This document shows positions 3,025 through 41,972 of a stretch of DNA of 64,000 nucleotides, piece by piece. The DNA is from Oscillospiraceae bacterium (GTDB taxonomy: Bacteria > Bacillota > Clostridia > Oscillospirales > Ruminococcaceae). Both the position numbers and the translations under genes were made by a program. Each line of letters starts with the position of its first letter. The stretch's first letter is position 1. The notes under the pieces were generated by a model, which ran no database searches, was not told where the DNA came from, and was given only the letters and a program-made list of their open reading frames with translations. The stretch lies in NCBI GenBank assembly GCA_031280965.1, contig JAITFZ010000015.1, forward strand, positions 78,323-142,322, in the 5' to 3' direction.

Positions 3025-3897
3025 ATGGCATTCGAGTCGCTTCCCGGAGTTAAGGTTGTTTCACACGCTACGGAGCAAACCTTCATAATCGGCGATTTTT
3101 TCGCTGTTTACTTAAAGGGCGATGAAATACCGACCATTTATCGCTGGGCTGAGGTTAAATCAATATCCGAAAGCAGAGCGGACTTCACGGTTTGTCTGAG
3201 CGGCATTACTTATAAAATAATGAAAACCTGTATTCCCGATGAAAAAAAGCAGCTTAATCTGCGCGGCGTATTTGAGGGCGCGGTTCATTTCAACCCCGCT
3301 ATCGAATATAATCACCCGAAACGCATTCTCCCGCCAAAATACCTTTATTTGAACGGAAACATGAACGAGGCGCCTTATATAGTCAACGGCGTTTACAGGG
3401 AACGGGAAATCAATTTCAGCAATGTTATACTGCTCAACACCCGCCTCGGAAGAATTTTTAAAATTGTCGCCTTTCTCTCAATTATAACTGTGTTCATTAT
3501 TTTGCACTTTACAATCGAGGGCGGAATAAGGCATAACTGGTTTTGGTTTATTCCCATTTCGGTTTTCTCGGGCGGGATTGCGGTTATGCTCATTTACTTA
3601 ATCTGCGCCATAATCGCGAACTACCACTTCGCCTACCTTTTTAAGAATGATGTCGCTATCAACGAGGAAATAACTTTTGCAGTCTCGTCGGACGGATTTT
3701 CCGCCGTGGAGAGCCACCTTCACACCGGCTGTGAATTTATACCGTGGATGGAAGCAAACTATTTTATAGAAACCAATTCTGTTTTTATAGTATATAAGCA
3801 TAAGAAGGCTGTTTTTTGGTTGCCTAAGCGGCTGTTTTCCAAGGAAATCCAGACCGAAATTTCCAACTTTATACACGCAAGGCTCGTTCAAAAATAA
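3025..3897 (+). CDS. YcxB-like membrane protein (two YcxB/PH-like repeats around two TM helices)
   Basis: C-terminal W...YFIET..VFIVY......FWLPKRLF pattern typical of YcxB; similar N-terminal RWAEVKSISE...KIMK segment. Confidence 0.65.
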   Translation: MAFESLPGVKVVSHATEQTFIIGDFFAVYLKGDEIPTIYRWAEVKSISESRADFTVCLSGITYKIMKTCIPDEKKQLNLRGVFEGAVHFNPAIEYNHPKRILPPKYLYLNGNMNEAPYIVNGVYREREINFSNVILLNTRLGRIFKIVAFLSIITVFIILHFTIEGGIRHNWFWFIPISVFSGGIAVMLIYLICAIIANYHFAYLFKNDVAINEEITFAVSSDGFSAVESHLHTGCEFIPWMEANYFIETNSVFIVYKHKKAVFWLPKRLFSKEIQTEISNFIHARLVQK

Positions 3898-30209: not shown

Positions 30210-31355
30210 ATGAAAAAAATCTGCGCGTTACTGATTGCGGCGGTGTTTTGCGTCGTTGGCGCCGTTCCCGCACTTGCAATCGACTATGTCCAAAACCCGA
30301 ACTATACGTTCAACGACAAGGCGGCGTGGACACCGCTTCCTTTCAATGAAAGCGGATTCACGCATTTAATCACGACAAACTCCGGCGATACTCCGATTAT
30401 TATTAACAACGCGGCTGTACTTACGTTAACGCATTTGAATGTAATCCTCAGCGAAACACTGAACCCGGGGCAGAAACCGATAGTATTCCGTAATACGGAC
30501 TTGAACTACTCGATTATAATTGACCCAAAATCAGTCGATAAAAACAATCTGCGTCCGATTTCGCTCGCTTTGCACTTTGAAGAAACCAAGAATGCGGCGG
30601 GAGATATCCCGGCGGGTGCGTTTGTGATTACGCCGGCGGCGGGCGGCGAGTTCGCAATGAAGCTTGACATAGTCATTGGCGGGGGAAACCTCGGCAGTTT
30701 CTCGGAAGCTGAAACACTGGCGCTTTATTATGTGAGCAATGCGGGCGTTGTCAGTTTTTTAAGGAATGTTACTTTTAATTCCGACGGTACGCTTACTGTT
30801 TCGATTGATAGAGCTTCGTCATATTTCCTTACTCCTGCTGTTGCGGGACCACAGGGACCGGAAGGACCACAAGGACCGCAGGGGCCGCAAGGACCTTCGG
30901 GCGGCGGAACAACTCCACCTTCGGGCGGCGGAACGACACCTCCTTCGGGCGGCGGAACGACACCACCTTCGGGCGGCGGGACAACACCGCCTTCAGGCGG
31001 CGGGACACAGGGACCGCAAGGTCCGGCAGGGCAGACCGGAGCTGACGGCAGAGATGGCTCTGATGGTCGGGATGGCAGAGACGGCATGAGCGGCTCTGAC
31101 GGTCGGGACGGTCGGGACGGTCGGGATGGTCGGGACGGAAGGGACGCAAGCGGCAACGCGGGCGATTCCGGCGGCAACAGACCTTCCGGTAACAACTGGT
31201 GGAATTATCAAAGCGACAACAACCCGTCCACAAACGTTGCTTTCGGTATAGCGGGACTTGTTGCGGCTACGGGAGCGGGAATTGTGATGTTCCTTTTTAA
31301 GCGGCGTAAGGCTGACGATTTTGATGACCGTGATGAGGACGATTTCGATAATTGA
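30210..31355 (+). CDS. surface protein with collagen-like and GGGTTPPS repeats and NPSTN-type sorting signal
   Basis: Signal peptide; (GPQ)n, (GGGTTPPS)4 and (GRD)n repeats; NPSTN + TM helix + KRRK, then an acidic tail. Confidence 0.85.
   Translation: MKKICALLIAAVFCVVGAVPALAIDYVQNPNYTFNDKAAWTPLPFNESGFTHLITTNSGDTPIIINNAAVLTLTHLNVILSETLNPGQKPIVFRNTDLNYSIIIDPKSVDKNNLRPISLALHFEETKNAAGDIPAGAFVITPAAGGEFAMKLDIVIGGGNLGSFSEAETLALYYVSNAGVVSFLRNVTFNSDGTLTVSIDRASSYFLTPAVAGPQGPEGPQGPQGPQGPSGGGTTPPSGGGTTPPSGGGTTPPSGGGTTPPSGGGTQGPQGPAGQTGADGRDGSDGRDGRDGMSGSDGRDGRDGRDGRDGRDASGNAGDSGGNRPSGNNWWNYQSDNNPSTNVAFGIAGLVAATGAGIVMFLFKRRKADDFDDRDEDDFDN
30841..31160 (+). repeat. coding tandem repeats: 9-nt collagen-like units and 24-nt GGGTTPPS units
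   Basis: GGCGGCGGAACNACNCCNCCTTCG x4; GACGGTCGG/GATGGTCGG arrays. Confidence 0.9.
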
Positions 31356-31547: not shown

Positions 31548-31618
31548 AACATGTTCCCCCTTGTAATTAATATGACGATTTATGTCGTATTACAGGTTAT
31601 GCTATTCGCGCTAAAAGT

Positions 31619-31648
31619 GACACCGACTTTTTTAAAAAGCATAATATG
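31619..31648 (+). promoter_or_regulatory. putative mother-cell (sigmaK/sigmaE-type) promoter of the cotJ operon
   Basis: GACA-17-CATAATATG versus sigmaK consensus ACA-16/17-CATANNNT. Confidence 0.5.
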
Positions 31649-31682: not shown

Positions 31683-31853
31683 ATGCACAATAAAATGAAT
31701 ACGGGACATCCGAGGGTCGGTTACGCATACGTTGTACCGCAACGGCTCGGCAAGGTTTATCCGCCGAAAAAGGCGCTTATGGCGGGTACTGTTTTCCCCG
31801 AATTAAACATAGGCATTCAAGACTATACAAGGGGGATTTGGAATGGAAAGTAG
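31683..31853 (+). CDS. cotJA: spore coat associated protein CotJA (not in the ORF track)
   Basis: 56 aa; YAYVVPQRLGKVYPPKKALMAGTVFPELN matches the CotJA pattern; AAGGAAGG RBS; overlaps the cotJB start. Confidence 0.88.
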   Translation: MHNKMNTGHPRVGYAYVVPQRLGKVYPPKKALMAGTVFPELNIGIQDYTRGIWNGK

Positions 31854-32130
31854 AATTACAAACGATTGTTGCAAACCTATACCGCAGGACTGCTCGCTGC
31901 TGATGGATAAGTTATGCGAGGCACACTTTTTTGCACATGACCTGAAGCTTTATCTGGACACGCATCCGGACGACCAAGCGGCACTTGATATGTATAGGGA
32001 AGCATGCAGGCAATACTGCGCCTGCGTTGAAGCTTTTGAAAGTTGCTGTTATCCTTTGCGTGAGTGCAGTGCGGGCGAAAACGGCGAGTGGGATTGGCTT
32101 TGCGGAGCATGGCCGTCGGAAAGGATATAG
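31843..32130 (+). CDS. cotJB: spore coat protein CotJB
   Basis: F..HDLKLYLDTHPDD..AL..Y, YPL and W.W...WP.E. Confidence 0.93.
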   Translation: MESRITNDCCKPIPQDCSLLMDKLCEAHFFAHDLKLYLDTHPDDQAALDMYREACRQYCACVEAFESCCYPLRECSAGENGEWDWLCGAWPSERI

Positions 32131-32138
32131 GTGAATGT

Positions 32139-32236
32139 ATGTTTATTTTTGAAAAAAGAACGCAGATGCCTGTCAGAATACATAATAAAAATCCTAAGCT
32201 GGCGGGGTTTATACTTACGCAGTACGGCGGACCCGA
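32139..32236 (+). pseudogene. cotJC: 5' fragment (32 codons) of CotJC manganese-catalase family gene, interrupted
   Basis: MFIFEKRTQMPVRIHNKNPKLAGFILTQYGGP matches the CotJC N-terminus (..YEK.LQYPV.I..PNP.LA..I..QYGG.DGEL). Sequence diverges after CCC GA and stops at 32285. Confidence 0.88.
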
Positions 32237-32299
32237 GGAGCCGCCTTGTTTTATTGCGCCCTGTGAAAAGCGCGGTTTAGCTTGAAAAAGATAAAATTA

Positions 32300-32328
32300 T
32301 TGACTTTTTATTTTCTGTATGTTATAAT
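32300..32328 (+). promoter_or_regulatory. sigmaA promoter upstream of flagellin
   Basis: TTGACT-17-TATAAT with TGn extended -10. Confidence 0.75.
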
Positions 32329-32393: not shown

Positions 32394-33257
32394 ATGACAG
32401 TGAGAAACAGTCTTAATGCGATGGGTTTGGCAAACAGATTAAGCATCAACTCCAATCAAACAGGCAAAACTTCAAGAAATATAGCCTCCGGCTCCCGTAT
32501 TAACCGCGCCGCTAACGATGCGGCAGGGCTTGCCATTGCTATGAAGATGCAATCGCAGATTGGCGGAACGGGTCAGGCTGTTCGTAATGTCGCCGACGGC
32601 ATGAGTTTAATTCAAACTGCGGAAGGCGCACTCGGCGGAACACAGGCAATGCTCGGACGAATAGAAATGCTTTCTGTTCAAGCCGCAAACGGAACCCTTA
32701 CTGATACACAGCGCGGATTTATTCAAATGGAAATAGACCAAATAAAATCTGAAATCAACAGGGTTTCAAGCGCTACCAATTTTAACGGCATTAATCTGCT
32801 TGACGGTTCTGTTTCGGGCGAAAACGGCGGTTTAACCTTGCAAATCGGTGCAGATGACGCCGCCGAACAAAGATTCGACGTTAATATTGAGGCAATGAAT
32901 ACCCGCGCACTCGGATTATCCGGGCTTGATGTCAGAACTGCGGGCAGTGCTTTAAATGCTATTGGTGATGCAAACCGGGCGATTGGGTTGGTTTCCGAGC
33001 AAAGGGCATCTCTCGGTGCAATGCAGAACAGGCTCGAACATACTGTGAACGGCTTAACAAATGCTTCTGAAAATCTAACGGCGGCAAAATCAAGAATAGG
33101 CGATGCCGATATGGCGGCTGAAATGATTGCTTTGACGACGAACAATATTTTACAGCAAGCGTCAATTGCTATGCTGGCTCATAAAATCAAAGAGCCGCAG
33201 GGTGTGTTGAAGTTACTGGGACAAAATACCGCGCCGTCAATTAATTTTAAGGCTTAA
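32394..33257 (+). CDS. fliC: minimal flagellin (D0-D1 only), divergent
   Basis: ASGSRINRAANDAAGLAIA, IQTAEGAL, NFNGINLLDG, LQIGA, RASLGAMQNRLEH and SRIGDADMA; start at 32394 after GGAGGG. Confidence 0.92.
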   Translation: MTVRNSLNAMGLANRLSINSNQTGKTSRNIASGSRINRAANDAAGLAIAMKMQSQIGGTGQAVRNVADGMSLIQTAEGALGGTQAMLGRIEMLSVQAANGTLTDTQRGFIQMEIDQIKSEINRVSSATNFNGINLLDGSVSGENGGLTLQIGADDAAEQRFDVNIEAMNTRALGLSGLDVRTAGSALNAIGDANRAIGLVSEQRASLGAMQNRLEHTVNGLTNASENLTAAKSRIGDADMAAEMIALTTNNILQQASIAMLAHKIKEPQGVLKLLGQNTAPSINFKA

Positions 33258-33311: not shown

Positions 33312-34190
33312 CTACTCAATATTTTGTATCTGCTCCCTTATTTTTTCCAGTTCGCTCTTCAAATCCACCACGATTTTTGTCACCCTCAAATCCTGCGCTT
33401 TCGAGCCGATTGTATTAACTTCTCGGTTAATTTCCTGCACTAAAAAGTCTAATTTCCGTCCCACAACATCCTCGCCGTCCAACATTTCGCGAAGCTGTGA
33501 AATGTGGCTGTTAAGCCGTACAGTTTCCTCATCTACGGCGGTTTTCTCGGCGAAAACTGCTGCTTCAAGCAACACTCGCTGTTCATCTATTTGCATGTTT
33601 TCGAGAATCTCCCTGAGCTTTTCAAAAAGCCTGTTGCGATAATTCGCTGTGGTTTCGGGGGAGATTTTTTCAACTTCCGAAACTTTTCTTTCAATAACAG
33701 TGATTTTTTCAAGCAGGTCGGCTTTAATTTTTTGTCCCTCATTTTCACGCATAAGTATGAATTTATCAAGCGCCGAAGCCGCTACTGAAGCAACTCCGCG
33801 CCAAATTTCGTCTTCATCGGTGTCGGCTTTCAAAACATTAAATGCATCGGTCATTCTGAAAATGTCCGACAGAGAAAGGTCGTCAACAAGGCATAAATCA
33901 TCTTTTATTTCACGCAAAGCGGTGATGTAATTTTCGACCACAGGCAGATTCACGCTGATTTGCGTTTCTTTGCCGGCAATGTTGTAAATTGAAAGCGAAA
34001 CCTCGATTTTTCCGCGCCCTGTTTTGTCCTGAATAAGTTGCTTGAGCTTATCCTCCAGATAATTGTAGGAGCGCGGGAGTTTTGCAGAAAATTCAAAGTA
34101 GCGGTGGTTGACCGAGCGGATTTCAACTAAAATATCTCTTCCGTCAATCACCTCGCGCGCACGTCCGAAGCCTGTCATACTGCGAATCAT
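33312..34190 (-). CDS. yloC: YicC/YloC family endoribonuclease
   Basis: MIRSMTGFGR, EIRSVNHRY, EETVRLNSH and GRKLDFLVQEINREVNTIGSK. Confidence 0.95.
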   Translation of the reverse strand: MIRSMTGFGRAREVIDGRDILVEIRSVNHRYFEFSAKLPRSYNYLEDKLKQLIQDKTGRGKIEVSLSIYNIAGKETQISVNLPVVENYITALREIKDDLCLVDDLSLSDIFRMTDAFNVLKADTDEDEIWRGVASVAASALDKFILMRENEGQKIKADLLEKITVIERKVSEVEKISPETTANYRNRLFEKLREILENMQIDEQRVLLEAAVFAEKTAVDEETVRLNSHISQLREMLDGEDVVGRKLDFLVQEINREVNTIGSKAQDLRVTKIVVDLKSELEKIREQIQNIE

Positions 34191-34209
34191 TTTATATAGT
34201 TTCCTTTCG

Positions 34210-35457
34210 TTAGTTTGTCAAATTTAATATATTTTGCGCGGCGTTAAGTACGCCGATTTTTCCTGTCGCATAAGTCAGTCCGCCCTGAAGCCACACCGCG
34301 TAAGGTTCCCGCAAAGGCGCGTCGGCACTGAGTTCAATTGACGAACCCATTGTGAACGCACCTGCCGCCATAATTACATCATCAGCGTAACCGGGCATTG
34401 CCCAGGGTTCAGGTGAAGCATAGCTGTCAATCGGGCTTCCCGCCTGTATTCCGCGGCAGAAAGCAATTAATTTTTCGCGGTTTCCAAGCTTAATCGCAAC
34501 AGGTAAATCAACCCGCTTTTCGCTATAATGCGGAAAGGTCTCATATCCTGACAATTCAAATAAAGCGGACGCGAAAACCGTGGTCATCAAAGCGTTTGCG
34601 GTTATTTCCGGCGCGAGGAAAACTCCAAGCAAAATCTCTCTCGTCATGCCTAAAGTGCAGCCAGCTTCCATGCCGATTCCGACCGCCGAAAGCCGCTGGG
34701 CACATAAATCCGTCAAATCTTTTCTGCCTGCGATATAACCTCCGGTTCGCGCGATTCCGCCGCCGGGATTTTTAATTAAACTTCCGATTGTTAAGTCTGC
34801 ATCCGCATTTGCCGGCTCAGTGATTTCGCAGAATTCACCGTAACAATTGTCAACTATTATAATTGCGTTTTCATTGATTTTTTTTGTCAACTTGACAATT
34901 TCTTTGATTTCACTCACACTTAACGACTGCCTTAATGTATATCCGCGTGAACGTTGAATATAAGCGACTTTGCAAGCTTTTATAAGTTCTGCGTTTTCCT
35001 GCAAATTACTGCCGAAATCAAGCTCGGCATATTTTATTCCAAACTCTTTCAAAGAACCGCCGGAATCAGCGTGAATTACGCCTTTTAATGTGTCATATGG
35101 GCTTCCGGTCAGTGACAGCATTAAATCACCGGGACGTAAAACGCCGAATAAAGCACAGGAAATAGCGTGAGTTCCGCTTATGAAATTGTGACGGCAAATC
35201 GCACTTTCAGCACCGAAAACCGTTGCAAAAACAGCATCGGTTTTTTCTCTGCCGATGTCGTTGTAACCGTAACCGTCGGTGGGGTTAAAGTGAGATGTAC
35301 TGACTTTGTTTTCAATAAAAGCGCGAAGAACTTTTTCGCCGTTTATACGTGCGATTTCGCGTATTTCTGCGAACTTATTCGTGCATAAAGTCTCAGCTTT
35401 TTCAGCTAATTTTATTAACTTTGAATCAAAATTAAACGTCATATTACAACTCCGCAA
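34210..35457 (-). CDS. methionine gamma-lyase family / aluminium resistance (YnbB-like) PLP protein
   Basis: GYGYND.GRE, ISGTHAI, QRSRGY, VDNCYGEF, GSLIKNPGGG and MPGY.D.VIMAAG.F..GSSIELSAD. Confidence 0.93.
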   Translation of the reverse strand: MRSCNMTFNFDSKLIKLAEKAETLCTNKFAEIREIARINGEKVLRAFIENKVSTSHFNPTDGYGYNDIGREKTDAVFATVFGAESAICRHNFISGTHAISCALFGVLRPGDLMLSLTGSPYDTLKGVIHADSGGSLKEFGIKYAELDFGSNLQENAELIKACKVAYIQRSRGYTLRQSLSVSEIKEIVKLTKKINENAIIIVDNCYGEFCEITEPANADADLTIGSLIKNPGGGIARTGGYIAGRKDLTDLCAQRLSAVGIGMEAGCTLGMTREILLGVFLAPEITANALMTTVFASALFELSGYETFPHYSEKRVDLPVAIKLGNREKLIAFCRGIQAGSPIDSYASPEPWAMPGYADDVIMAAGAFTMGSSIELSADAPLREPYAVWLQGGLTYATGKIGVLNAAQNILNLTN

Positions 35458-36487
35458 TTTTATATGCCATTTTTTCAGCTAAAATGCGCATTTCAAATAA
35501 ATCATCTTCTTTTATTACACATGACGGCGAGTGCAAATATCTGCATGGTGCGGCAAGGCAAATTGTACGGATTCCGCCTGCTGTTTTGTGTATAGTTCCG
35601 CTGTCGTTTCCGCCTGCGATTTGAGTTTTGGTTTGACATTTTAAATTATTTTCGGCGGCTGTTTCAAATGCTAATTTGTAAAGTTGTTTGTCGTATACGG
35701 TACTTTTATCCATGAAAGGAACGACTGTGCCGTTTCCTATTTTACAAACCTGATTTTCATCCTCAACACCCGAAATATCACAGGCGGTTGTAGCCTCTAA
35801 AACCAGCGCGAAATCAGGCTTTACGGCATATGCGGCAACCCCTGCCCCGCGCGCCCCTATTTCTTCCTGCACTGTAAAAACAAAGTGCATGTCAATGTCA
35901 AGTTCTGATAAAATCATGTCAAGCATAACGGCACATCCAAGCCTGTCATCAAGCGCTTTCCCTTTTATATAATTATCGCCGAACTTGACAAATTCACTTC
36001 TGAAATAAGCAAAATCTCCGAGAGATATAAACTTTTCTGCATCATTTTTGCTGTTTGCGCCTATATCTGCATAAATCCCGGAAAGTTTAGGCTGCTTGTC
36101 TTTCTCGTCACCATCAAGGTGATGAATGGGCTTGCCGCCTATTACGCCGTATATTTCGGAATCCCCGCTTTTAAAGCATATATGACGCCCGAAAACCACA
36201 GAATCCGAAATGCCGCCTACCGCCGATAAAGAAATAAAACCATCAGAAGTTATACCGCGAACAACAAATCCGACTTCGTCCATGTGCGCGCAAATCATAA
36301 TTTTATTTTTAGGCTTTTTTTTATTTTTATCACGAACAATTAAATTTCCGAGATTGTCAAATGAAATCTCGCAAGAAGCGTCTTTTAGCGCGTTTACAAT
36401 GTATTTACGAATGTCAAGTTCGTCGCCTGAAACAGCGTTTAATAAACATAAATCTCTTAAAAAATTAGTGATTCTTTCCATGTTCAC
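35444..36487 (-). CDS. M42 family metallopeptidase
   Basis: AHMDEVG, KALDDRLG, FTVQEEIG, GGNDSG and RYLHS. Confidence 0.93.
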   Translation of the reverse strand: MNMERITNFLRDLCLLNAVSGDELDIRKYIVNALKDASCEISFDNLGNLIVRDKNKKKPKNKIMICAHMDEVGFVVRGITSDGFISLSAVGGISDSVVFGRHICFKSGDSEIYGVIGGKPIHHLDGDEKDKQPKLSGIYADIGANSKNDAEKFISLGDFAYFRSEFVKFGDNYIKGKALDDRLGCAVMLDMILSELDIDMHFVFTVQEEIGARGAGVAAYAVKPDFALVLEATTACDISGVEDENQVCKIGNGTVVPFMDKSTVYDKQLYKLAFETAAENNLKCQTKTQIAGGNDSGTIHKTAGGIRTICLAAPCRYLHSPSCVIKEDDLFEMRILAEKMAYKIAEL

Positions 36488-37491
36488 CTCAATATAAATT
36501 CTGCAATTAACTGTCCGGTTGCTTCGATATCAGAAAGTTGTAAAGTTTCCGCGGGTGTGTGCATGTTACGCAAGGGAATTGACAAAAGAGCGCATTTTAC
36601 GCCGTTTCGTGTGATTGAAACAGCATCGGCGTCAGTACTTGTTTTACCGCTCATAACCTCGATTTGGTGTGTTATGTTTTTTTCTTTTGCAATACACGTC
36701 ACGTCCTCAAATAAGCCGCGGTCAAGCGAAGGCGCGCTTCCAATCATTACGCCGTTTCCGAGTTTCCATGTACTGTTTTCTTTTGCTCCCGGATAATCGC
36801 CGAAACTTACATCAACAGCAATCGCCAAATCGGGATTCACGCTATAAGCCGCAATCCCCGCGCCTCGTTTACCAAGTTCCTCCTGCGATGAAAAAGTAAC
36901 GGCTAAATTATACTTTAATTTTTTGCCTTTTAATAAATATAAAGCATATAAAATCGCACAAACACCCGCCCTGTCATCAAGGGCGCGTGCGGTGATTCTG
37001 TCGTTTTGAAGCTCTGTGAACTGCGCGTCAATTGTTACCGGGTCGCCGAGTGAAACCAACTTGTCAAGTTCCTCTTTTGTGAAACCGCAATCAATTGCGA
37101 TTTCATCTTCTTTAATGGCTTTTACTGTATCTTTTATTACGTGCGGCGGAAGCGTACAGACTATACCTTTAATCGGCTTTTTACTCCATATTGTAACTTG
37201 AGAGGCGGGTAAAGCTCGCCTGTCAATTCCGCCCGCCCTGCCGACTTTGAGAAAGCCTTTGTCATCAATGAATTTGACAATCATTCCTATTTCATCAATG
37301 TGCGCATCAAGCAAGAGTAAAGGTAAGTTACCGTCAAATTTCATGCTGCCCGCAACTGTACCGAAATTGTCAATTTCTGCATTCGGTATGTGTTCGGAAA
37401 GCAACTCGCAAGCCGCTTCCGAAGCGGCGTTTTCACTGCCGGCTACACCGGCAGGTTCGCAGAGAATTTTTAATGTTTCTTTAAGGTTCAT
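36484..37491 (-). CDS. M42 family metallopeptidase (paralog)
   Basis: DAHIDEIG, RALDDRAG, QEELG, STDAD and RNMHTP; likely start MNLKETL at 37491. Confidence 0.92.
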   Translation of the reverse strand: MNLKETLKILCEPAGVAGSENAASEAACELLSEHIPNAEIDNFGTVAGSMKFDGNLPLLLLDAHIDEIGMIVKFIDDKGFLKVGRAGGIDRRALPASQVTIWSKKPIKGIVCTLPPHVIKDTVKAIKEDEIAIDCGFTKEELDKLVSLGDPVTIDAQFTELQNDRITARALDDRAGVCAILYALYLLKGKKLKYNLAVTFSSQEELGKRGAGIAAYSVNPDLAIAVDVSFGDYPGAKENSTWKLGNGVMIGSAPSLDRGLFEDVTCIAKEKNITHQIEVMSGKTSTDADAVSITRNGVKCALLSIPLRNMHTPAETLQLSDIEATGQLIAEFILR

Positions 37492-37542
37492 TAATTTTTT
37501 TCCTCGTATCATTAACATATTCCAAACATCGGCAAGCAACAG

Positions 37543-40179
37543 TTATTTTAACATCTCCAGCGAAATTTTAATTTTCTGCATTTTTTCTTCAGCTTTTTGG
37601 AGTTTTTCTCGCGCTTTTTCAACTTGTTCGGGCGGTGCTTTTACGATGAATTTCTCATTGTCAAGTTGCTTCTTTACAAAGTCAATATCAGACTGTGCAA
37701 GCAACATTTCTTTTTCAAGACGCCCGCGTTCTTTTTCGGAATCAACAAGCTCACCCATCGGCATGAAAATCCGCGCACTGTCTGTAACAACAACAGCTTT
37801 CCCGTCACTGCTCTCAACATTTTCAGAAAGAAAAACCCCTGAAGCCGAAGCAAGCCTTTCAAAGAAAACGGCAGAACTTTTAAACAAATCGAAATTGTCG
37901 CCCGACGTTTCAATTTCATATGAAATTTTTCTGCTCGGCGGGACGTTGAGTTCTGCGCGTTTTGCCCGAATTGCAGAGATTGCATTTACGACTTTTCCGA
38001 AATTTTCGCTTTCGTTTTTGAAGTTCAGTTCCTCGTTGGAAACAGGAAAATCCGAGACCATAATTGACTGAGCGCAGCCGGGAATTGCCGACCAGATTTC
38101 TTCTGTTATAAAAGGCAGAAACGGATGAAGCAGTTTCAACATTCCGCGCATAACAAAAACAAGAATATTCTGCGCGGAAAGCGCGGATTCGCCGCCTTCG
38201 GCTATTCTCGGCTTTGTCAGTTCGATGTACCAGTCGCAGTAAATATTCCAAATGAAATCCTGTATATTTCCTGCCGCTACGCCGAGTTCAAATTGCCCGA
38301 GATTATACGTTGCGTCCTTTACAAGCTTATTGTACAAAGTAAGAATCCACTTATCCTCTATTGTCAAAAATCCGGGAATTACCGCTTCGTTAAAATCATC
38401 GGGAAGATTTATAAGAACATAACGAGCCGCGTTCCAAAGCTTATTTGCAAAGTTACGGCTGGCAGATATTTTTTCTTCGCTCCAGCGCATGTTGTTGCCC
38501 GTCGCGTTACCGGAAACCAACATAAACCTAAGCGCATCAGTCCCGTATTTATCAATAATTTCAAGCGGGTCAACGCCGTTATCCAATGACTTGCTCATTT
38601 TCCGTCCCTGCCCGTCGAGAACAAGACCGTTAAACATAACAGTATCAAAAGGTATTTTTCCCGTGTATTCAAGCGATGAAAAAATCATTCTTGCGACCCA
38701 GAGGAAGATAATATCAGCGGCGGTAACAAGCGTTTGCGTAGGGAAAAAGCGGCGGAAATCCTCGGTTTTATTTTCCGAACCCCATCCGAGGGTTGAAAAC
38801 GGCCACAGCGCAGAGCTGAACCAGGTGTCAAAGGTATCTTCGTCCTGCTTCATTTTACTGCCGCACTCTGAACAGCGCAATACTTCATTTTCGTGAACTT
38901 CCATATGTCCGCAATTCTCATTTTGGCAATAATAAGCAGGTATTCTGTGACCCCACCAGAGCTGCCGCGAAATGCACCAGTCGCGCACATTTTCCATCCA
39001 TGAAAGGTAGCTGTTCTCAAAATGCTTCGGTATAAACTTTATTTTTCCGCTTGTTACAACATCTATCGCAGGCTGTGCAAGCTCCTTCATTTTCACGAAC
39101 CACTGCACACTTGCCCACGGCTCTATTACCGTGCCGCAACGCCCGCATTCACTGACATTGTGAACATGTTCCTCAACCTTGACAAGCAAGCCCGATTCTT
39201 CCAAATCCTTTACGATTGCTTTTCGCGCTTCATAACGGGATAAGCCTTTATATTTACCGCCGTTTTGATTAATCGTTGCGGTTTCGTCCATAACATTTAC
39301 AACCGGCAGGTTGTGCCGCGAACCAACCTCAAAGTCGTTCGGGTCATGCGCCGGGGTGATTTTCACCATACCGGCACCGAAATCTTTTTCTACGTATTCA
39401 TCGGCGATTATAGGAATTTCCCGCTCCATAAGCGGCAGAATTATAGTTTTTCCGACTATGTCCCTGTAACGCTCGTCGTCCGGGTTAACCGCAACTGCCG
39501 TATCGCCGAGCATTGTTTCGGGGCGCGTGGTTGCTATTTGTATAAATCCGCTGCCGTCCGCGAAAGGATATTTTATATGCCAAAAATGCCCCGCTCTCTC
39601 CTCATAATCACACTCAATGTCTGAAATCGAGGTTTTACATTCGGGACACCAGTTGACAATACGAAGTCCACGGTAGGCTTTTCCGTCCGCGTATAATTTA
39701 AGGAAAACCTTCTGCACCGCAGCCGAACAACCCTCGTCCATCGTGAAACGCTCGCGCTCCCAGTCACAGCTTGAGCCTAATTTTTTAAGCTGGTTTATAA
39801 TTGCGCCGCCGTACTTTTCCGTCCATTTCCAGGCTTCTTTCAAGAAGCCCTCCCTACCCAAATCTTTCTTTGTAATGCCCTGACTTTTGAGCGATGCAAC
39901 AACACGCGCCTCGGTTGAAATCGAGGCGTGGTCGGTGCCGGGAAGCCACAGCACTTCATAGCCCGACATACGCTTCCAGCGACATAAAATATCCTGATAA
40001 GTGTTGTTGAGCGCGTGACCCATGTGTAAAATTCCTGTAACGTTCGGGGGCGGAATCACAATTGTATATGTTTCTTTTTCGGAAGCGGCGTCGGCTTTGA
40101 AATAACCGCTTTCCTCCCAGTTTTTATAAATCCGTTCCTCGAAATCTTTCGGGGAGTAGGTTTTGGCAAGTTCTTTCAT
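37543..40179 (-). CDS. valS: valyl-tRNA synthetase
   Basis: PPPNVTGILHMGH (HIGH-like), DWCISRQLWWGHRIP, KMSKS and C-terminal coiled coil. Confidence 0.98.
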   Translation of the reverse strand: MKELAKTYSPKDFEERIYKNWEESGYFKADAASEKETYTIVIPPPNVTGILHMGHALNNTYQDILCRWKRMSGYEVLWLPGTDHASISTEARVVASLKSQGITKKDLGREGFLKEAWKWTEKYGGAIINQLKKLGSSCDWERERFTMDEGCSAAVQKVFLKLYADGKAYRGLRIVNWCPECKTSISDIECDYEERAGHFWHIKYPFADGSGFIQIATTRPETMLGDTAVAVNPDDERYRDIVGKTIILPLMEREIPIIADEYVEKDFGAGMVKITPAHDPNDFEVGSRHNLPVVNVMDETATINQNGGKYKGLSRYEARKAIVKDLEESGLLVKVEEHVHNVSECGRCGTVIEPWASVQWFVKMKELAQPAIDVVTSGKIKFIPKHFENSYLSWMENVRDWCISRQLWWGHRIPAYYCQNENCGHMEVHENEVLRCSECGSKMKQDEDTFDTWFSSALWPFSTLGWGSENKTEDFRRFFPTQTLVTAADIIFLWVARMIFSSLEYTGKIPFDTVMFNGLVLDGQGRKMSKSLDNGVDPLEIIDKYGTDALRFMLVSGNATGNNMRWSEEKISASRNFANKLWNAARYVLINLPDDFNEAVIPGFLTIEDKWILTLYNKLVKDATYNLGQFELGVAAGNIQDFIWNIYCDWYIELTKPRIAEGGESALSAQNILVFVMRGMLKLLHPFLPFITEEIWSAIPGCAQSIMVSDFPVSNEELNFKNESENFGKVVNAISAIRAKRAELNVPPSRKISYEIETSGDNFDLFKSSAVFFERLASASGVFLSENVESSDGKAVVVTDSARIFMPMGELVDSEKERGRLEKEMLLAQSDIDFVKKQLDNEKFIVKAPPEQVEKAREKLQKAEEKMQKIKISLEMLK

Positions 40180-40196
40180 TTTTATATGTCCTTTCT

Positions 40197-41972
40197 TTAT
40201 GTTTTTAGCTTATTGTATAATTCCTCATTCGGCGTAACATACAGCGTCTTATTATTTGTAAAAATTACCATTCCCGGTTTTGCGCCGACCGGCTTTTTCA
40301 CGAACTTAACTTCGGTATAATCCACCGGTACACGGTTTGAACTGCGCGCCTTCGAGAACCACGCCGCTAACTGTGCGGCCTCTTCCAATGTTTTATCGGA
40401 TGGCGCGTTATCTCTCACAATGACATGCGAACCTGCGATGTCCTTGGTGTGAAGCCAGATTTCATGCGGTTTTGCTGTTTTGAGTGTAAGAACATCGTTT
40501 TGCCTGTTGTTCATACCGACTAAAATTGTCGCACCGTCACTTGATGTAAATTTCATAGGTTCTGACGGTTTTTCCTGTTTCGCGCCTTTTTTAGGGTTCA
40601 CACCCGCCGACTTCAAGCTTGAAGCAAGATAGCCGGCTTCGATAAGTTCCCGCTTGATTTCAAGCAATTGCGATTCGCCGACCGCCCGTGAAGCGGCTTC
40701 AAGCACACTGTCAAGGTAAATAAGTTCATTTTCTCCGTCTTTAATTAATTCGGTCAGGGTTTTTTCGGCAGTCTGCATTTTTTTATACTCTGTGTAATAT
40801 TTTTGCGCGTTTTTTGCAGGTGTAAGCTTTCGGTCAAGCGGAACTTCAACATTTTCGCCCGTTTCAAAATCCTGCGCTATGAGCAGAGTTTTTCCTTTTT
40901 CCATAGCATGAATATTCGCACTGATTAAATCGCCCCACTTACGGAATTTCTCGCGTCCGGCGCAGGCGGCAAGGTCGTTTCGCCTTGCGTCGATTTTCCG
41001 TAAAACCCGCCCGTAACGGTTGCTGAGCGTCTTTAATATAGAACCCGAGCGTTGCTTCATACGCTCGGCATTGGCGCGTTCAGCGTAGAAGTTGTCAAGG
41101 AGCGCGTTTGCAGAAACATAAGGTCTTACTTCTATCTCCCCGCCGTATTGTTCAATATCAATAAAAGTAAAGCCGAAAGGCTTCTTCTCGCTGCTTATGA
41201 GCATGACAGGATTAGGCGAGTTAATAAGCGAGAAGCGGGCTTTTTCGAGGAATTTTAATAAACGCTCTGTTGATTCAACGGTTAAATCAACTGTAAGTAT
41301 ATCAATTTGCCCCGAAGAAACGAAAGCCGCTTCCCGCGCAAAAAGCGGACAGATTCCCTCAAATATTTTTATTAAAGCCTTGTTAAGCCGCTCTTGTTCA
41401 CGTTCTTTCAGAGCGTTCATAAGTTCTGATTTTGTGAAATTAATAAGCGATAAACGGGTTTCTCTTGGAGGCGGTTCATAAACCAGTCCGGGCAGTACCC
41501 GCCGCACCGATGAAACCTCGTCCGTTATGCGCTTTAGCGCGTCAATTATGCGAAGCGTGTTGTCTTTTTCAATCAGCAGAATTATATTATTGCTTCTGCC
41601 CATAATTTCAACCAAGAGTATAATACTCTCCTCATCGCCGATTTCATTACGGCAGTTAAATCTGAAGAGGATGATTCGCTCAAATCCATCCTGTGAGATT
41701 TCGGTTAGCCTGCCATTGCCTAACCGCTTTCGCAGTAATCGGCAGAACATAGGCGGATTTTGGGGATTTTCGGCATGCTTTGATGTAAGGCAGACCCGTG
41801 CGGAAGCGGGATTGGCAGACAATAAAAGCTTCTTCGAGCCGTTTTTAGTGTGAAGCGACAGGAAAATTTCCTCGCGTGAGGGCTGATGAATCTTCTCTAC
41901 GCGGGAGTTTATTAAGCCTTCGTTGAGCATTTCTGTTTTTACAATGTGTAAAAACGCGCCGGAAAGTGACAT
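40197..41972 (-). CDS. rqcH: ribosome quality control factor RqcH (NFACT / FbpA-like)
   Basis: RVEKIHQP, PPMFCRLLRK.L, VEIMGRSNNIIL, NAQKYY..YKK, WLHTKDIAGSHV and VPVDYT.VK.VKKP.GAKPG.VIF. Confidence 0.94.
   Translation of the reverse strand: MSLSGAFLHIVKTEMLNEGLINSRVEKIHQPSREEIFLSLHTKNGSKKLLLSANPASARVCLTSKHAENPQNPPMFCRLLRKRLGNGRLTEISQDGFERIILFRFNCRNEIGDEESIILLVEIMGRSNNIILLIEKDNTLRIIDALKRITDEVSSVRRVLPGLVYEPPPRETRLSLINFTKSELMNALKEREQERLNKALIKIFEGICPLFAREAAFVSSGQIDILTVDLTVESTERLLKFLEKARFSLINSPNPVMLISSEKKPFGFTFIDIEQYGGEIEVRPYVSANALLDNFYAERANAERMKQRSGSILKTLSNRYGRVLRKIDARRNDLAACAGREKFRKWGDLISANIHAMEKGKTLLIAQDFETGENVEVPLDRKLTPAKNAQKYYTEYKKMQTAEKTLTELIKDGENELIYLDSVLEAASRAVGESQLLEIKRELIEAGYLASSLKSAGVNPKKGAKQEKPSEPMKFTSSDGATILVGMNNRQNDVLTLKTAKPHEIWLHTKDIAGSHVIVRDNAPSDKTLEEAAQLAAWFSKARSSNRVPVDYTEVKFVKKPVGAKPGMVIFTNNKTLYVTPNEELYNKLKT

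Follow-up and report, generated by a model that had tools for sequence, protein, structure and literature searches.

That sporulation genes can contain intervening elements is textbook knowledge for sigK and a small number of others, and such elements are regarded as discrete domesticated prophages. The kind is already known from skin, SPbeta, vfbin, vrin, gin and yin (PMC4191935, PMC5595907, PMC5025042, PMC10747680). Prophage-like intervening elements were described in Bacillales and C. difficile, namely skin in sigK, SPbeta in spsM, vfbin in spoVFB and vrin in spoVR (PMC4191935, PMC5025042, PMC5499854), and gin is a non-prophage gerE-intervening element of B. cereus ATCC 10987 (PMC5595907). 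A skin-like element in cotJC of Laceyella sacchari was mentioned in one line by Galperin et al. (bioRxiv 10.1101/2022.02.25.481979).

The DNA analyzed here is a stretch of 64,000 nucleotides (the window) on contig C27 of the Oscillospiraceae genome G000 (36 contigs, 2.01 Mb, 98.8% complete). The frame of a sporulation gene, cotJC of an otherwise intact cotJA-cotJB-cotJC operon, was found to be interrupted in it after codon 32. As for skin, SPbeta, vfbin and vrin, a mother-cell sporulation gene is interrupted, a large serine recombinase (LSR) lies at one end by an att site, and precise attL x attR recombination would restore the frame. Those elements are discrete units of 14–134 kb with dispensable cargo, whereas core chromosome including valS lies beside the predicted attL in G000; besides, two unrelated LSRs have each cut cotJC of G000 once, with the partner junction on a different contig. 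Minimal cargo, a recombinase and a small accessory gene, is shared with gin, for which the rearrangement is sporulation-specific (PMC5595907), but gin is compact and leaves the chromosome as a small circle, whereas at least 37 kb of chromosome separates the module of recombinase rec1 and its att site in G000 from the partner att. The L. sacchari element has the same target gene in a Bacillales species; compared with what that one line holds, the present case differs by several distinct sites, two dedicated LSR lineages, genus-wide prevalence and an Oscillospiraceae/Ruminococcaceae-type genus. The fdxN element of Anabaena heterocysts (recombinase XisF) is also a case of LSR-mediated developmental excision in a terminally differentiated cell, although it is a discrete 55-kb element with a different target in a different phylum; the other LSR of the window scores on the XisF model. 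In the literature searched, no description was found of multi-site, genus-wide targeting of cotJC, of double splitting by convergent LSRs, or of att partners separated by essential chromosome.

The interrupted cotJ operon and its reciprocal junctions

In B. subtilis, cotJ is expressed in the mother cell. Both cotJA and cotJB of the window are intact, as the original prediction had stated, with the PF11007 and PF12652 models matched over their full length (Table 1), and they are preceded by a promoter-like consensus match that may be used by sigma-K. The cotJC gene starts with ATG at 32139; codons 1–32 read MFIFEKRTQMPVRIHNKNPKLAGFILTQYGGP and end at 32234, after which GA (32235–32236) is followed by the divergent GGAGCCGCC, at the point where intact relatives read CCC GAC GGN GAR (DGE). 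Sequence and intact relatives agree with the earlier claim of a gene that is family-like up to QYGGP and then broken in place of DGE. The short dyad claimed to lie over the break is also present, straddling it as GGCGG-N10-CCGCC. The resulting in-frame fragment of 48 aa is too short for a Pfam score of its own. The Glu of DGE was aligned with the conserved GEL of the solved Mn catalases 4R42 and 1JKU, and it is a residue that binds the metal (Glu35 in the enzyme from L. plantarum). An unrelated sigmaA promoter and flagellin had been noted about 60 bp further on, and a promoter-like site was found 64 bp past the GA, followed by the flagellin gene. No recombinase gene adjoins the junction within the window, also as stated there.

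Just 5′ of cotJ, the window encodes a 381-aa secreted protein (30210–31355) that contains GPQ and GGGTTPPS repeats, weakly matches collagen repeats and has a C-terminal segment resembling a membrane anchor. This may be an exosporium or surface fibre protein.

Table 1. Features of the split cotJC locus of G000; plain positions are those of the window, and C5 positions those of the second contig.
Feature	Position	Strand	Basis
Promoter-like site 5′ of cotJA, GTGACA-17-CATAAT	31617..31645	+	consensus scan
cotJA, intact	31683..31853	+	PF11007 full length, E 2e-11
cotJB, intact	31843..32130	+	PF12652 full length, E 5e-20
cotJC 5′ piece, codons 1–32 to QYGGP	32139..32234	+	31/32 residues identical to uninterrupted relative P0001
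Predicted attL, cotJC half-site and element-derived arm GGAGCCGCCTTGTTTTATTGCGCCCTGTGAAAAGCG	32215..32280	+	junction comparison
GA, predicted 2-bp crossover core common to attL and attR	32235..32236; C5:3133-3134	+	junction comparison, predicted cleavage position
Read-through tail of cut cotJC ORF, 16 residues EEPPCFIAPCEKRGLA and stop	32237..32285	+	sequence; stop 32283-32285
Flagellin promoter-like site, TTGACT-17-TATAAT, sigma-70-like	32300..32328	+	11/12 matches, with TG
Flagellin, first gene past attL	32394..33257	+	PF00669 and PF00700
Core block: yloC/yicC, Met-gamma-lyase-like PLP enzyme, two M42 peptidases, valS, rqcH	33312..41972	-	NCBIfam
Conserved 55-aa ORF just 5′ of rec1	G000:C5:1376-1543		no Pfam match
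rec1, 520-aa LSR	C5:1544-3106		Resolvase, Recombinase and Zn-ribbon, all three above cut-off
Predicted attR, partner of attL	C5 about 3105-3160		directly after rec1
cotJC middle piece, codons 33–125, DGELGASLRY...MQSKGDP	G000:C5:3135-3413		Mn_catalase search
rec2, second LSR, convergent on cotJC middle piece	C5:3434 to about 4876	-	LSR domain matches

A Pfam Mn_catalase search of the 36 contigs of G000 found a second piece of cotJC on contig C5, starting 28 bp past the stop of rec1. Searching the genome for the 3′ part and a neighboring serine recombinase, as the original prediction had proposed, thereby yielded both, with codons 33–125 directly after rec1. The predicted attL ends in ...GGACCCGA and attR resumes with GA-CGGCGAACTG, with zero bases lost or duplicated. 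A shared core of 2 bp is the size expected of a serine recombinase. The attL arm GGAGCCGCCTTGTTTTATTGCGCCCTGTGAAAAGCG and the C5 arm GTCATAAATTCAGCGGTGCA form an imperfect dyad around GA (about 11/19 by eye), and by eye the attL arm is also similar to those of the rec1-family elements from L080 and L084 (TTTAT..CCTG.AAA.GC). Recombination of attL and attR would give an attB product reading ...CAGTACGGCGGACCC-GA-CGGCGAACTGGG... and an attP product reading ...TTCAGCGGTGCA-GA-GGAGCCGCCTTG.... The 125-aa frame joined from the window and C5 matched PF05067 (3e-29) and aligned to 4R42 and 1JKU across the GEL and EELxHLE motifs. It reads QYGGPDGEL and is 95% identical to the metagenomic protein P0001, whose codons are contiguous. 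These comparisons support the conclusion that the window carries the attL of an LSR event in cotJC, which supports the original interpretation: the left junction of an interruption whose recombinase was expected at the other junction is matched by rec1 and the 3′ part on C5, with breaks reciprocal at GA.

For a draft of 36 contigs with contig ends that lack links, an artefact has to be weighed, in which the cotJC–flagellin join is chimeric or C5 is from another organism. However, Logan contig L077 (run SRR14710903, independent assembly, 9042 bp) was 100% identical across the window junction, so that this second assembler's contig agrees over 9 kb across the join. No repeat was found at the cotJC-to-flagellin junction. 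Reproduction in an independent assembly together with the lack of a repeat makes a mis-join unlikely, and a repeat-driven mis-join was rejected. Between C27 and C5, the break points match reciprocally down to single bases, and in the nucleotide divergence comparison the C5 cotJC piece stood at 79% to relatives, close to the 75% of the window region. An artefact is thus extremely improbable. Look-ups with CotJB and flagellin returned one other contig only, identical to the window, and the start of the cotJC middle piece, scanned as an exact pattern, had no match among JGI metagenome contigs.

From about 45 bp past the core, the DNA beyond attL consists of flagellin, yloC, valS and rqcH and not of a discrete element with dispensable cargo. 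Flagellin is single-copy in the genome, the flagellar export gene flhA was found on C32, and the gene order from yloC to rqcH is the same in the relatives G035, G039 and G040. A flagellin-carrying mobile element was therefore rejected, the flagellin being single-copy, the flagellar apparatus present and the downstream genes syntenic core. The prediction had allowed for an intervening element or a rearrangement; no self-contained element lies between the junctions, and flagellin, yloC and valS fit a rearrangement best. Core genes such as yloC and valS beside attL suggest that the att partners were separated by chromosomal rearrangement, and at least 34 kb of C27 and 3 kb of C5 lie between them. 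By contig-end overlap some contigs share 119-bp ends, and no link was found for C27, C5 and C36. GC skew along C27 tracks gene orientation and does not resolve inversions, and the region upstream of flagellin is too diverged from the nearest relative for placing a rearrangement breakpoint. A two-inversion history that places rc(C36) beside C5 is compatible with the junctions and is mentioned as a sketch, not as a claim. The closest relative of this cotJC (95% aa), L078 (ENA ERZ27257304 k141_1694996), was broken only at AAE|QKAR, with a housekeeping-type gene within about 100 bp of the break, so that core DNA lies directly behind the att arm there.

The second break and the two recombinase lineages

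The C5 piece of cotJC stops at KGDP where relatives go on with IADL (KGDP|IADL); past this point it reads NYQW and a stop, 17 bp from the end of the convergent rec2. Judged from these sequences, cotJC is predicted to be in three pieces or more. One decamer, GCGGACCCGA, is present at both break sites in intact relatives. The last 60 codons were absent from the G000 assembly by tblastn with a relative, and the last third was absent by a profile of 76 C-terminal thirds searched against all six frames (best E = 1). This missing part is the one with the last two metal ligands of CotJC. The 3′ part on whose presence the original prediction depended is consequently there for codons 33–125 and missing from the assembly for the last 60 codons. 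An IS1 transposase gene adjoins rec2 and may have truncated the rec2 element.

The frames of rec1 and rec2 are both open, with the catalytic serine motifs YLRLSKEDE and YIRVSTDDQ, respectively, close to the N-terminus. No ATG, GTG or TTG lies upstream of the catalytic serine of rec2, which would need an ATT after a good ribosome-binding site. Homologues of rec1 (61–69% identity) directly abut a cotJC piece broken in the QYGGPDGE stretch, in elements that carry a MobA/MobL relaxase or TraG and in assemblies labelled Defluviitaleaceae and Oscillospiraceae. The NCBI record L084 shares the architecture of C5, with a recombinase gene pointing to a short cotJC piece and a second LSR convergent on it: cotJAB and the cotJC 5′ part are followed by a 10.5-kb element ending in a small ORF and the recombinase, a 26-codon cotJC piece and the opposing LSR. 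A conserved 53–56-aa ORF was present just 5′ of the recombinase in all rec1 homologues examined, and the corresponding 55-aa ORF of G000 is a candidate directionality factor. The rec1 lineage is thus predicted to target specifically the QYGGPDGE-coding stretch of cotJC; the comparison with interrupted cotJC in related Clostridia that had been suggested placed its homologues at this same site. Within the genus, no close orthologue of rec1 was found (best 40% identity), and the unoccupied attP was for this reason not recoverable.

A homologue of rec2 with 87% identity (L085) abuts cotJC(1-125) with an identical junction, GGGCGACCCTAATTACCAATGGTAG, in an element with a relaxase. By these comparisons, the rec1 and rec2 lineages are both tied to these cotJC sites in other Clostridia, inside mobilisable elements. 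More distant relatives of rec2 abut fragments of other genes, such as GH18. In the JGI metagenome contigs L087 and L090, rec2 relatives (68–72%) abut truncated GH18 genes near spoIIP and spo0A, and the rec2 clade may target several sporulation-associated genes.

The 12-mer ATATAGTTTACA was found exactly twice in the whole genome, at C5:1351 and C5:5027 (minus), about 160–190 bp 5′ of each of rec1 and rec2 and oriented alike; it was noticed post hoc and may be a shared regulatory site. The region upstream of rec2 (C5:5100-5165) contains direct repeats of about 23 bp, TTCCGATATTGGCGCTATATTAA, in roughly 2.5 copies.

The mobilisable context of the rec1 relatives bears on a further explanation, in which rec1 and attP are resident in the chromosome and a large segment, invertible or excisable, serves vegetative phase variation, with the cotJC/flagellin junction as one of its states. 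Such a reversible switch would account for the strong flagellin promoter directly behind the att arm and for att partners embedded in core DNA, and LSR reactions are reversible with a directionality factor (SprA/SprB, PMC5499854). However, the relatives of rec1 are in ordinary mobilisable elements inserted in cotJC and not in resident switches, the second form was unseen in both assemblies of the same run, and the flagellin gene lacks flanking invertase-type inverted repeats. We consider a switch quite improbable.

Split sporulation genes in the genus and in this genome

The survey of the genus covered 69 genomes of at least 90% completeness, 59 of them with a Mn_catalase match. One uninterrupted cotJC was found in 24 genomes, and about 35/59 contained pieces only. 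The gene is split at about three or four hot spots, which by Pfam position are 23–31 (the site of the window; 13 genomes), 61–65 (approximately 12) and 143–151 (approximately 10); the second site of G000, near position 140, was unique among the surveyed genomes. The pieces are nearly always open frames, and pairs of them were found 3–23 kb apart on one contig in G026, G036, G111 and G106. In G039, one contig carries both parts, with the 3′ part 36 kb upstream of the 5′ one. The four closest relatives inspected were all broken in QYGG, 5–6 bp upstream of the G000 break and with unrelated flanks, which points to independent insertions into one hot spot; for the same reason the base-exact fit of the two G000 junctions is not trivial. 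The genome of G017 is closed, and in it 675 kb separate the two parts of cotJC, which share a strand and are permuted in order; their attL and attR are perfectly reciprocal, and the non-cotJC arms rebuild a perfect attP dyad, GGGATCATTCC...GGAATGATCCC. Thus, distant att partners are real in this genus.

An intact cotJC together with a second copy of its last 43 codons was observed in L015 (G014:C14; 8498-8626, 13134-13688) and also in G078. In L015 this copy is 91% identical, 4.5 kb downstream, and begins at the AAE|QKAR hot spot, and the partial copies look like what remains of an element by which the cotJC 3′ end was carried or duplicated.

Approximately 21 LSR genes are present in G000 (2.0 Mb), several of them at contig ends. 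Three LSR genes in a row are located at C28:22952-27805, and another (C20:83407-84909) lies directly upstream of spo0A. Two more sporulation genes are cut beside an LSR. In the window (18301-20421), spoVAD is cut at codon 202 (19815) beside a convergent LSR of 485 aa, and its 3′ half was found on C36 (G000:C36:11804-12250, L032) next to a thioesterase gene. In the relative G043, aspS and the thioesterase gene that flank the two spoVAD junctions of G000 are direct neighbors, so that the spoVAD halves are now on the two sides of what was an intergenic site in the ancestor, and this site holds the recombinase. The spoIVA gene (minus strand) is cut in its middle domain exactly at the stop of a convergent LSR of 568 aa (G000:C18:2535-4850), and the C-terminal domain (SpoIVA_C) was found nowhere in the G000 assembly. 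Spo0A is present and, like spoVAC and spoVAE, intact, a point in favor of the rejoining considered below.

A repeat of about 90 bp was observed at the 5′ ends of many genes (C36:13000-13100, C5:10022-10484 and more than 20 other places), where several ORFs begin with LVKKGLYENMK. The repeat resembles a dispersed leader or a MITE-like element.

A possible relic or a possibly repaired gene

The split gene may be a dead relic, in which real LSR insertions were followed by rearrangements (IS1, inversions) that scattered the pieces and by deletion of the last third, leaving cotJC a permanent pseudogene; spores would then be made without CotJC, or sporulation would be lost. Both the last third of cotJC and the SpoIVA C-terminal domain are missing from an assembly that is 98.8% complete, which makes loss of gene ends possible. 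The IS1 transposase beside rec2, the ATT start that rec2 would need and the core genes, not element genes, adjoining attL fit the same reading. Absence from 36 contigs is, however, weak evidence, since short or mobile contigs are often lost from binned assemblies. Both cotJC pieces and both LSR frames are open, and the same split states with open pieces recur in dozens of species.

Substitution patterns also speak against a relic. Compared with L078, in which both G000 sites are uninterrupted, the 125 codons of G000 differed synonymously at 64 and non-synonymously at 6. In comparison with L085, which shares the codon-125 split, dN/dS was 0.074 for the cotJC middle piece (dS 1.27) and 0.078 for rec2 (dS 1.22), a signal of purifying selection that is an average over a long divergence and is blind to very recent inactivation. 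The nearly equal dS values fit long co-inheritance of a functional recombinase with what would be a functional, though split, gene. We regard a dead relic as somewhat unlikely, and selection of this strength (dN/dS about 0.07) favors rejoining during sporulation.

In the reading that we consider reasonably probable, attL is a working substrate, which rec1 would rejoin with attR at GA during sporulation while rec2 acts at the second site. A rec1-bearing element would have entered cotJC and later been broken open, or its att sites moved, by chromosomal rearrangement. In the sporulating mother cell, rec1, probably helped by a small directionality factor for which the 55-aa ORF is the candidate, would recombine attL and attR at the GA core and restore CCC-GAC and the cotJC frame; rec2 would rejoin the gene likewise at codon 125. 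Because core DNA lies between the att sites, rejoining would mean a large excision or an inversion, with the orientation of the contigs deciding whether a large circle is excised or a segment inverted. No feature supporting repair by an intein or by trans-splicing was found.

A wider version is a programmed 'unscrambling' of the chromosome in the mother cell, in which several serine recombinases would rejoin the halves of cotJC (two sites), spoIVA and spoVAD across essential chromosome. As the halves are tens to hundreds of kb apart, this would mean large inversions or a chromosome split into circles instead of the loss of a parasite-like insert, and we put it forward tentatively, as a rather doubtful possibility. 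In model species, spoVAD is a forespore gene. Its split is hence hard to square with repair in the mother cell only, a point that speaks for a relic.

In this gut or fermenter-type clostridial genus, cotJC is hit at several sites and is a major target: more than half of the genomes that carry the gene have it split. Recombinase lineages are dedicated to particular cotJC codons, and att partners can have essential chromosome between them, even in a closed genome. Annotation pipelines would call such split genes pseudogenes, which affects the prediction of spore formation from genomes. If the split genes are not repaired, the genus would be a natural series in which recombinases erode sporulation genes. 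If they are still repaired, mother-cell site-specific recombination would work at the scale of the chromosome, and the genus would also supply a set of natural LSR/att pairs that are orthogonal and have targets already known.
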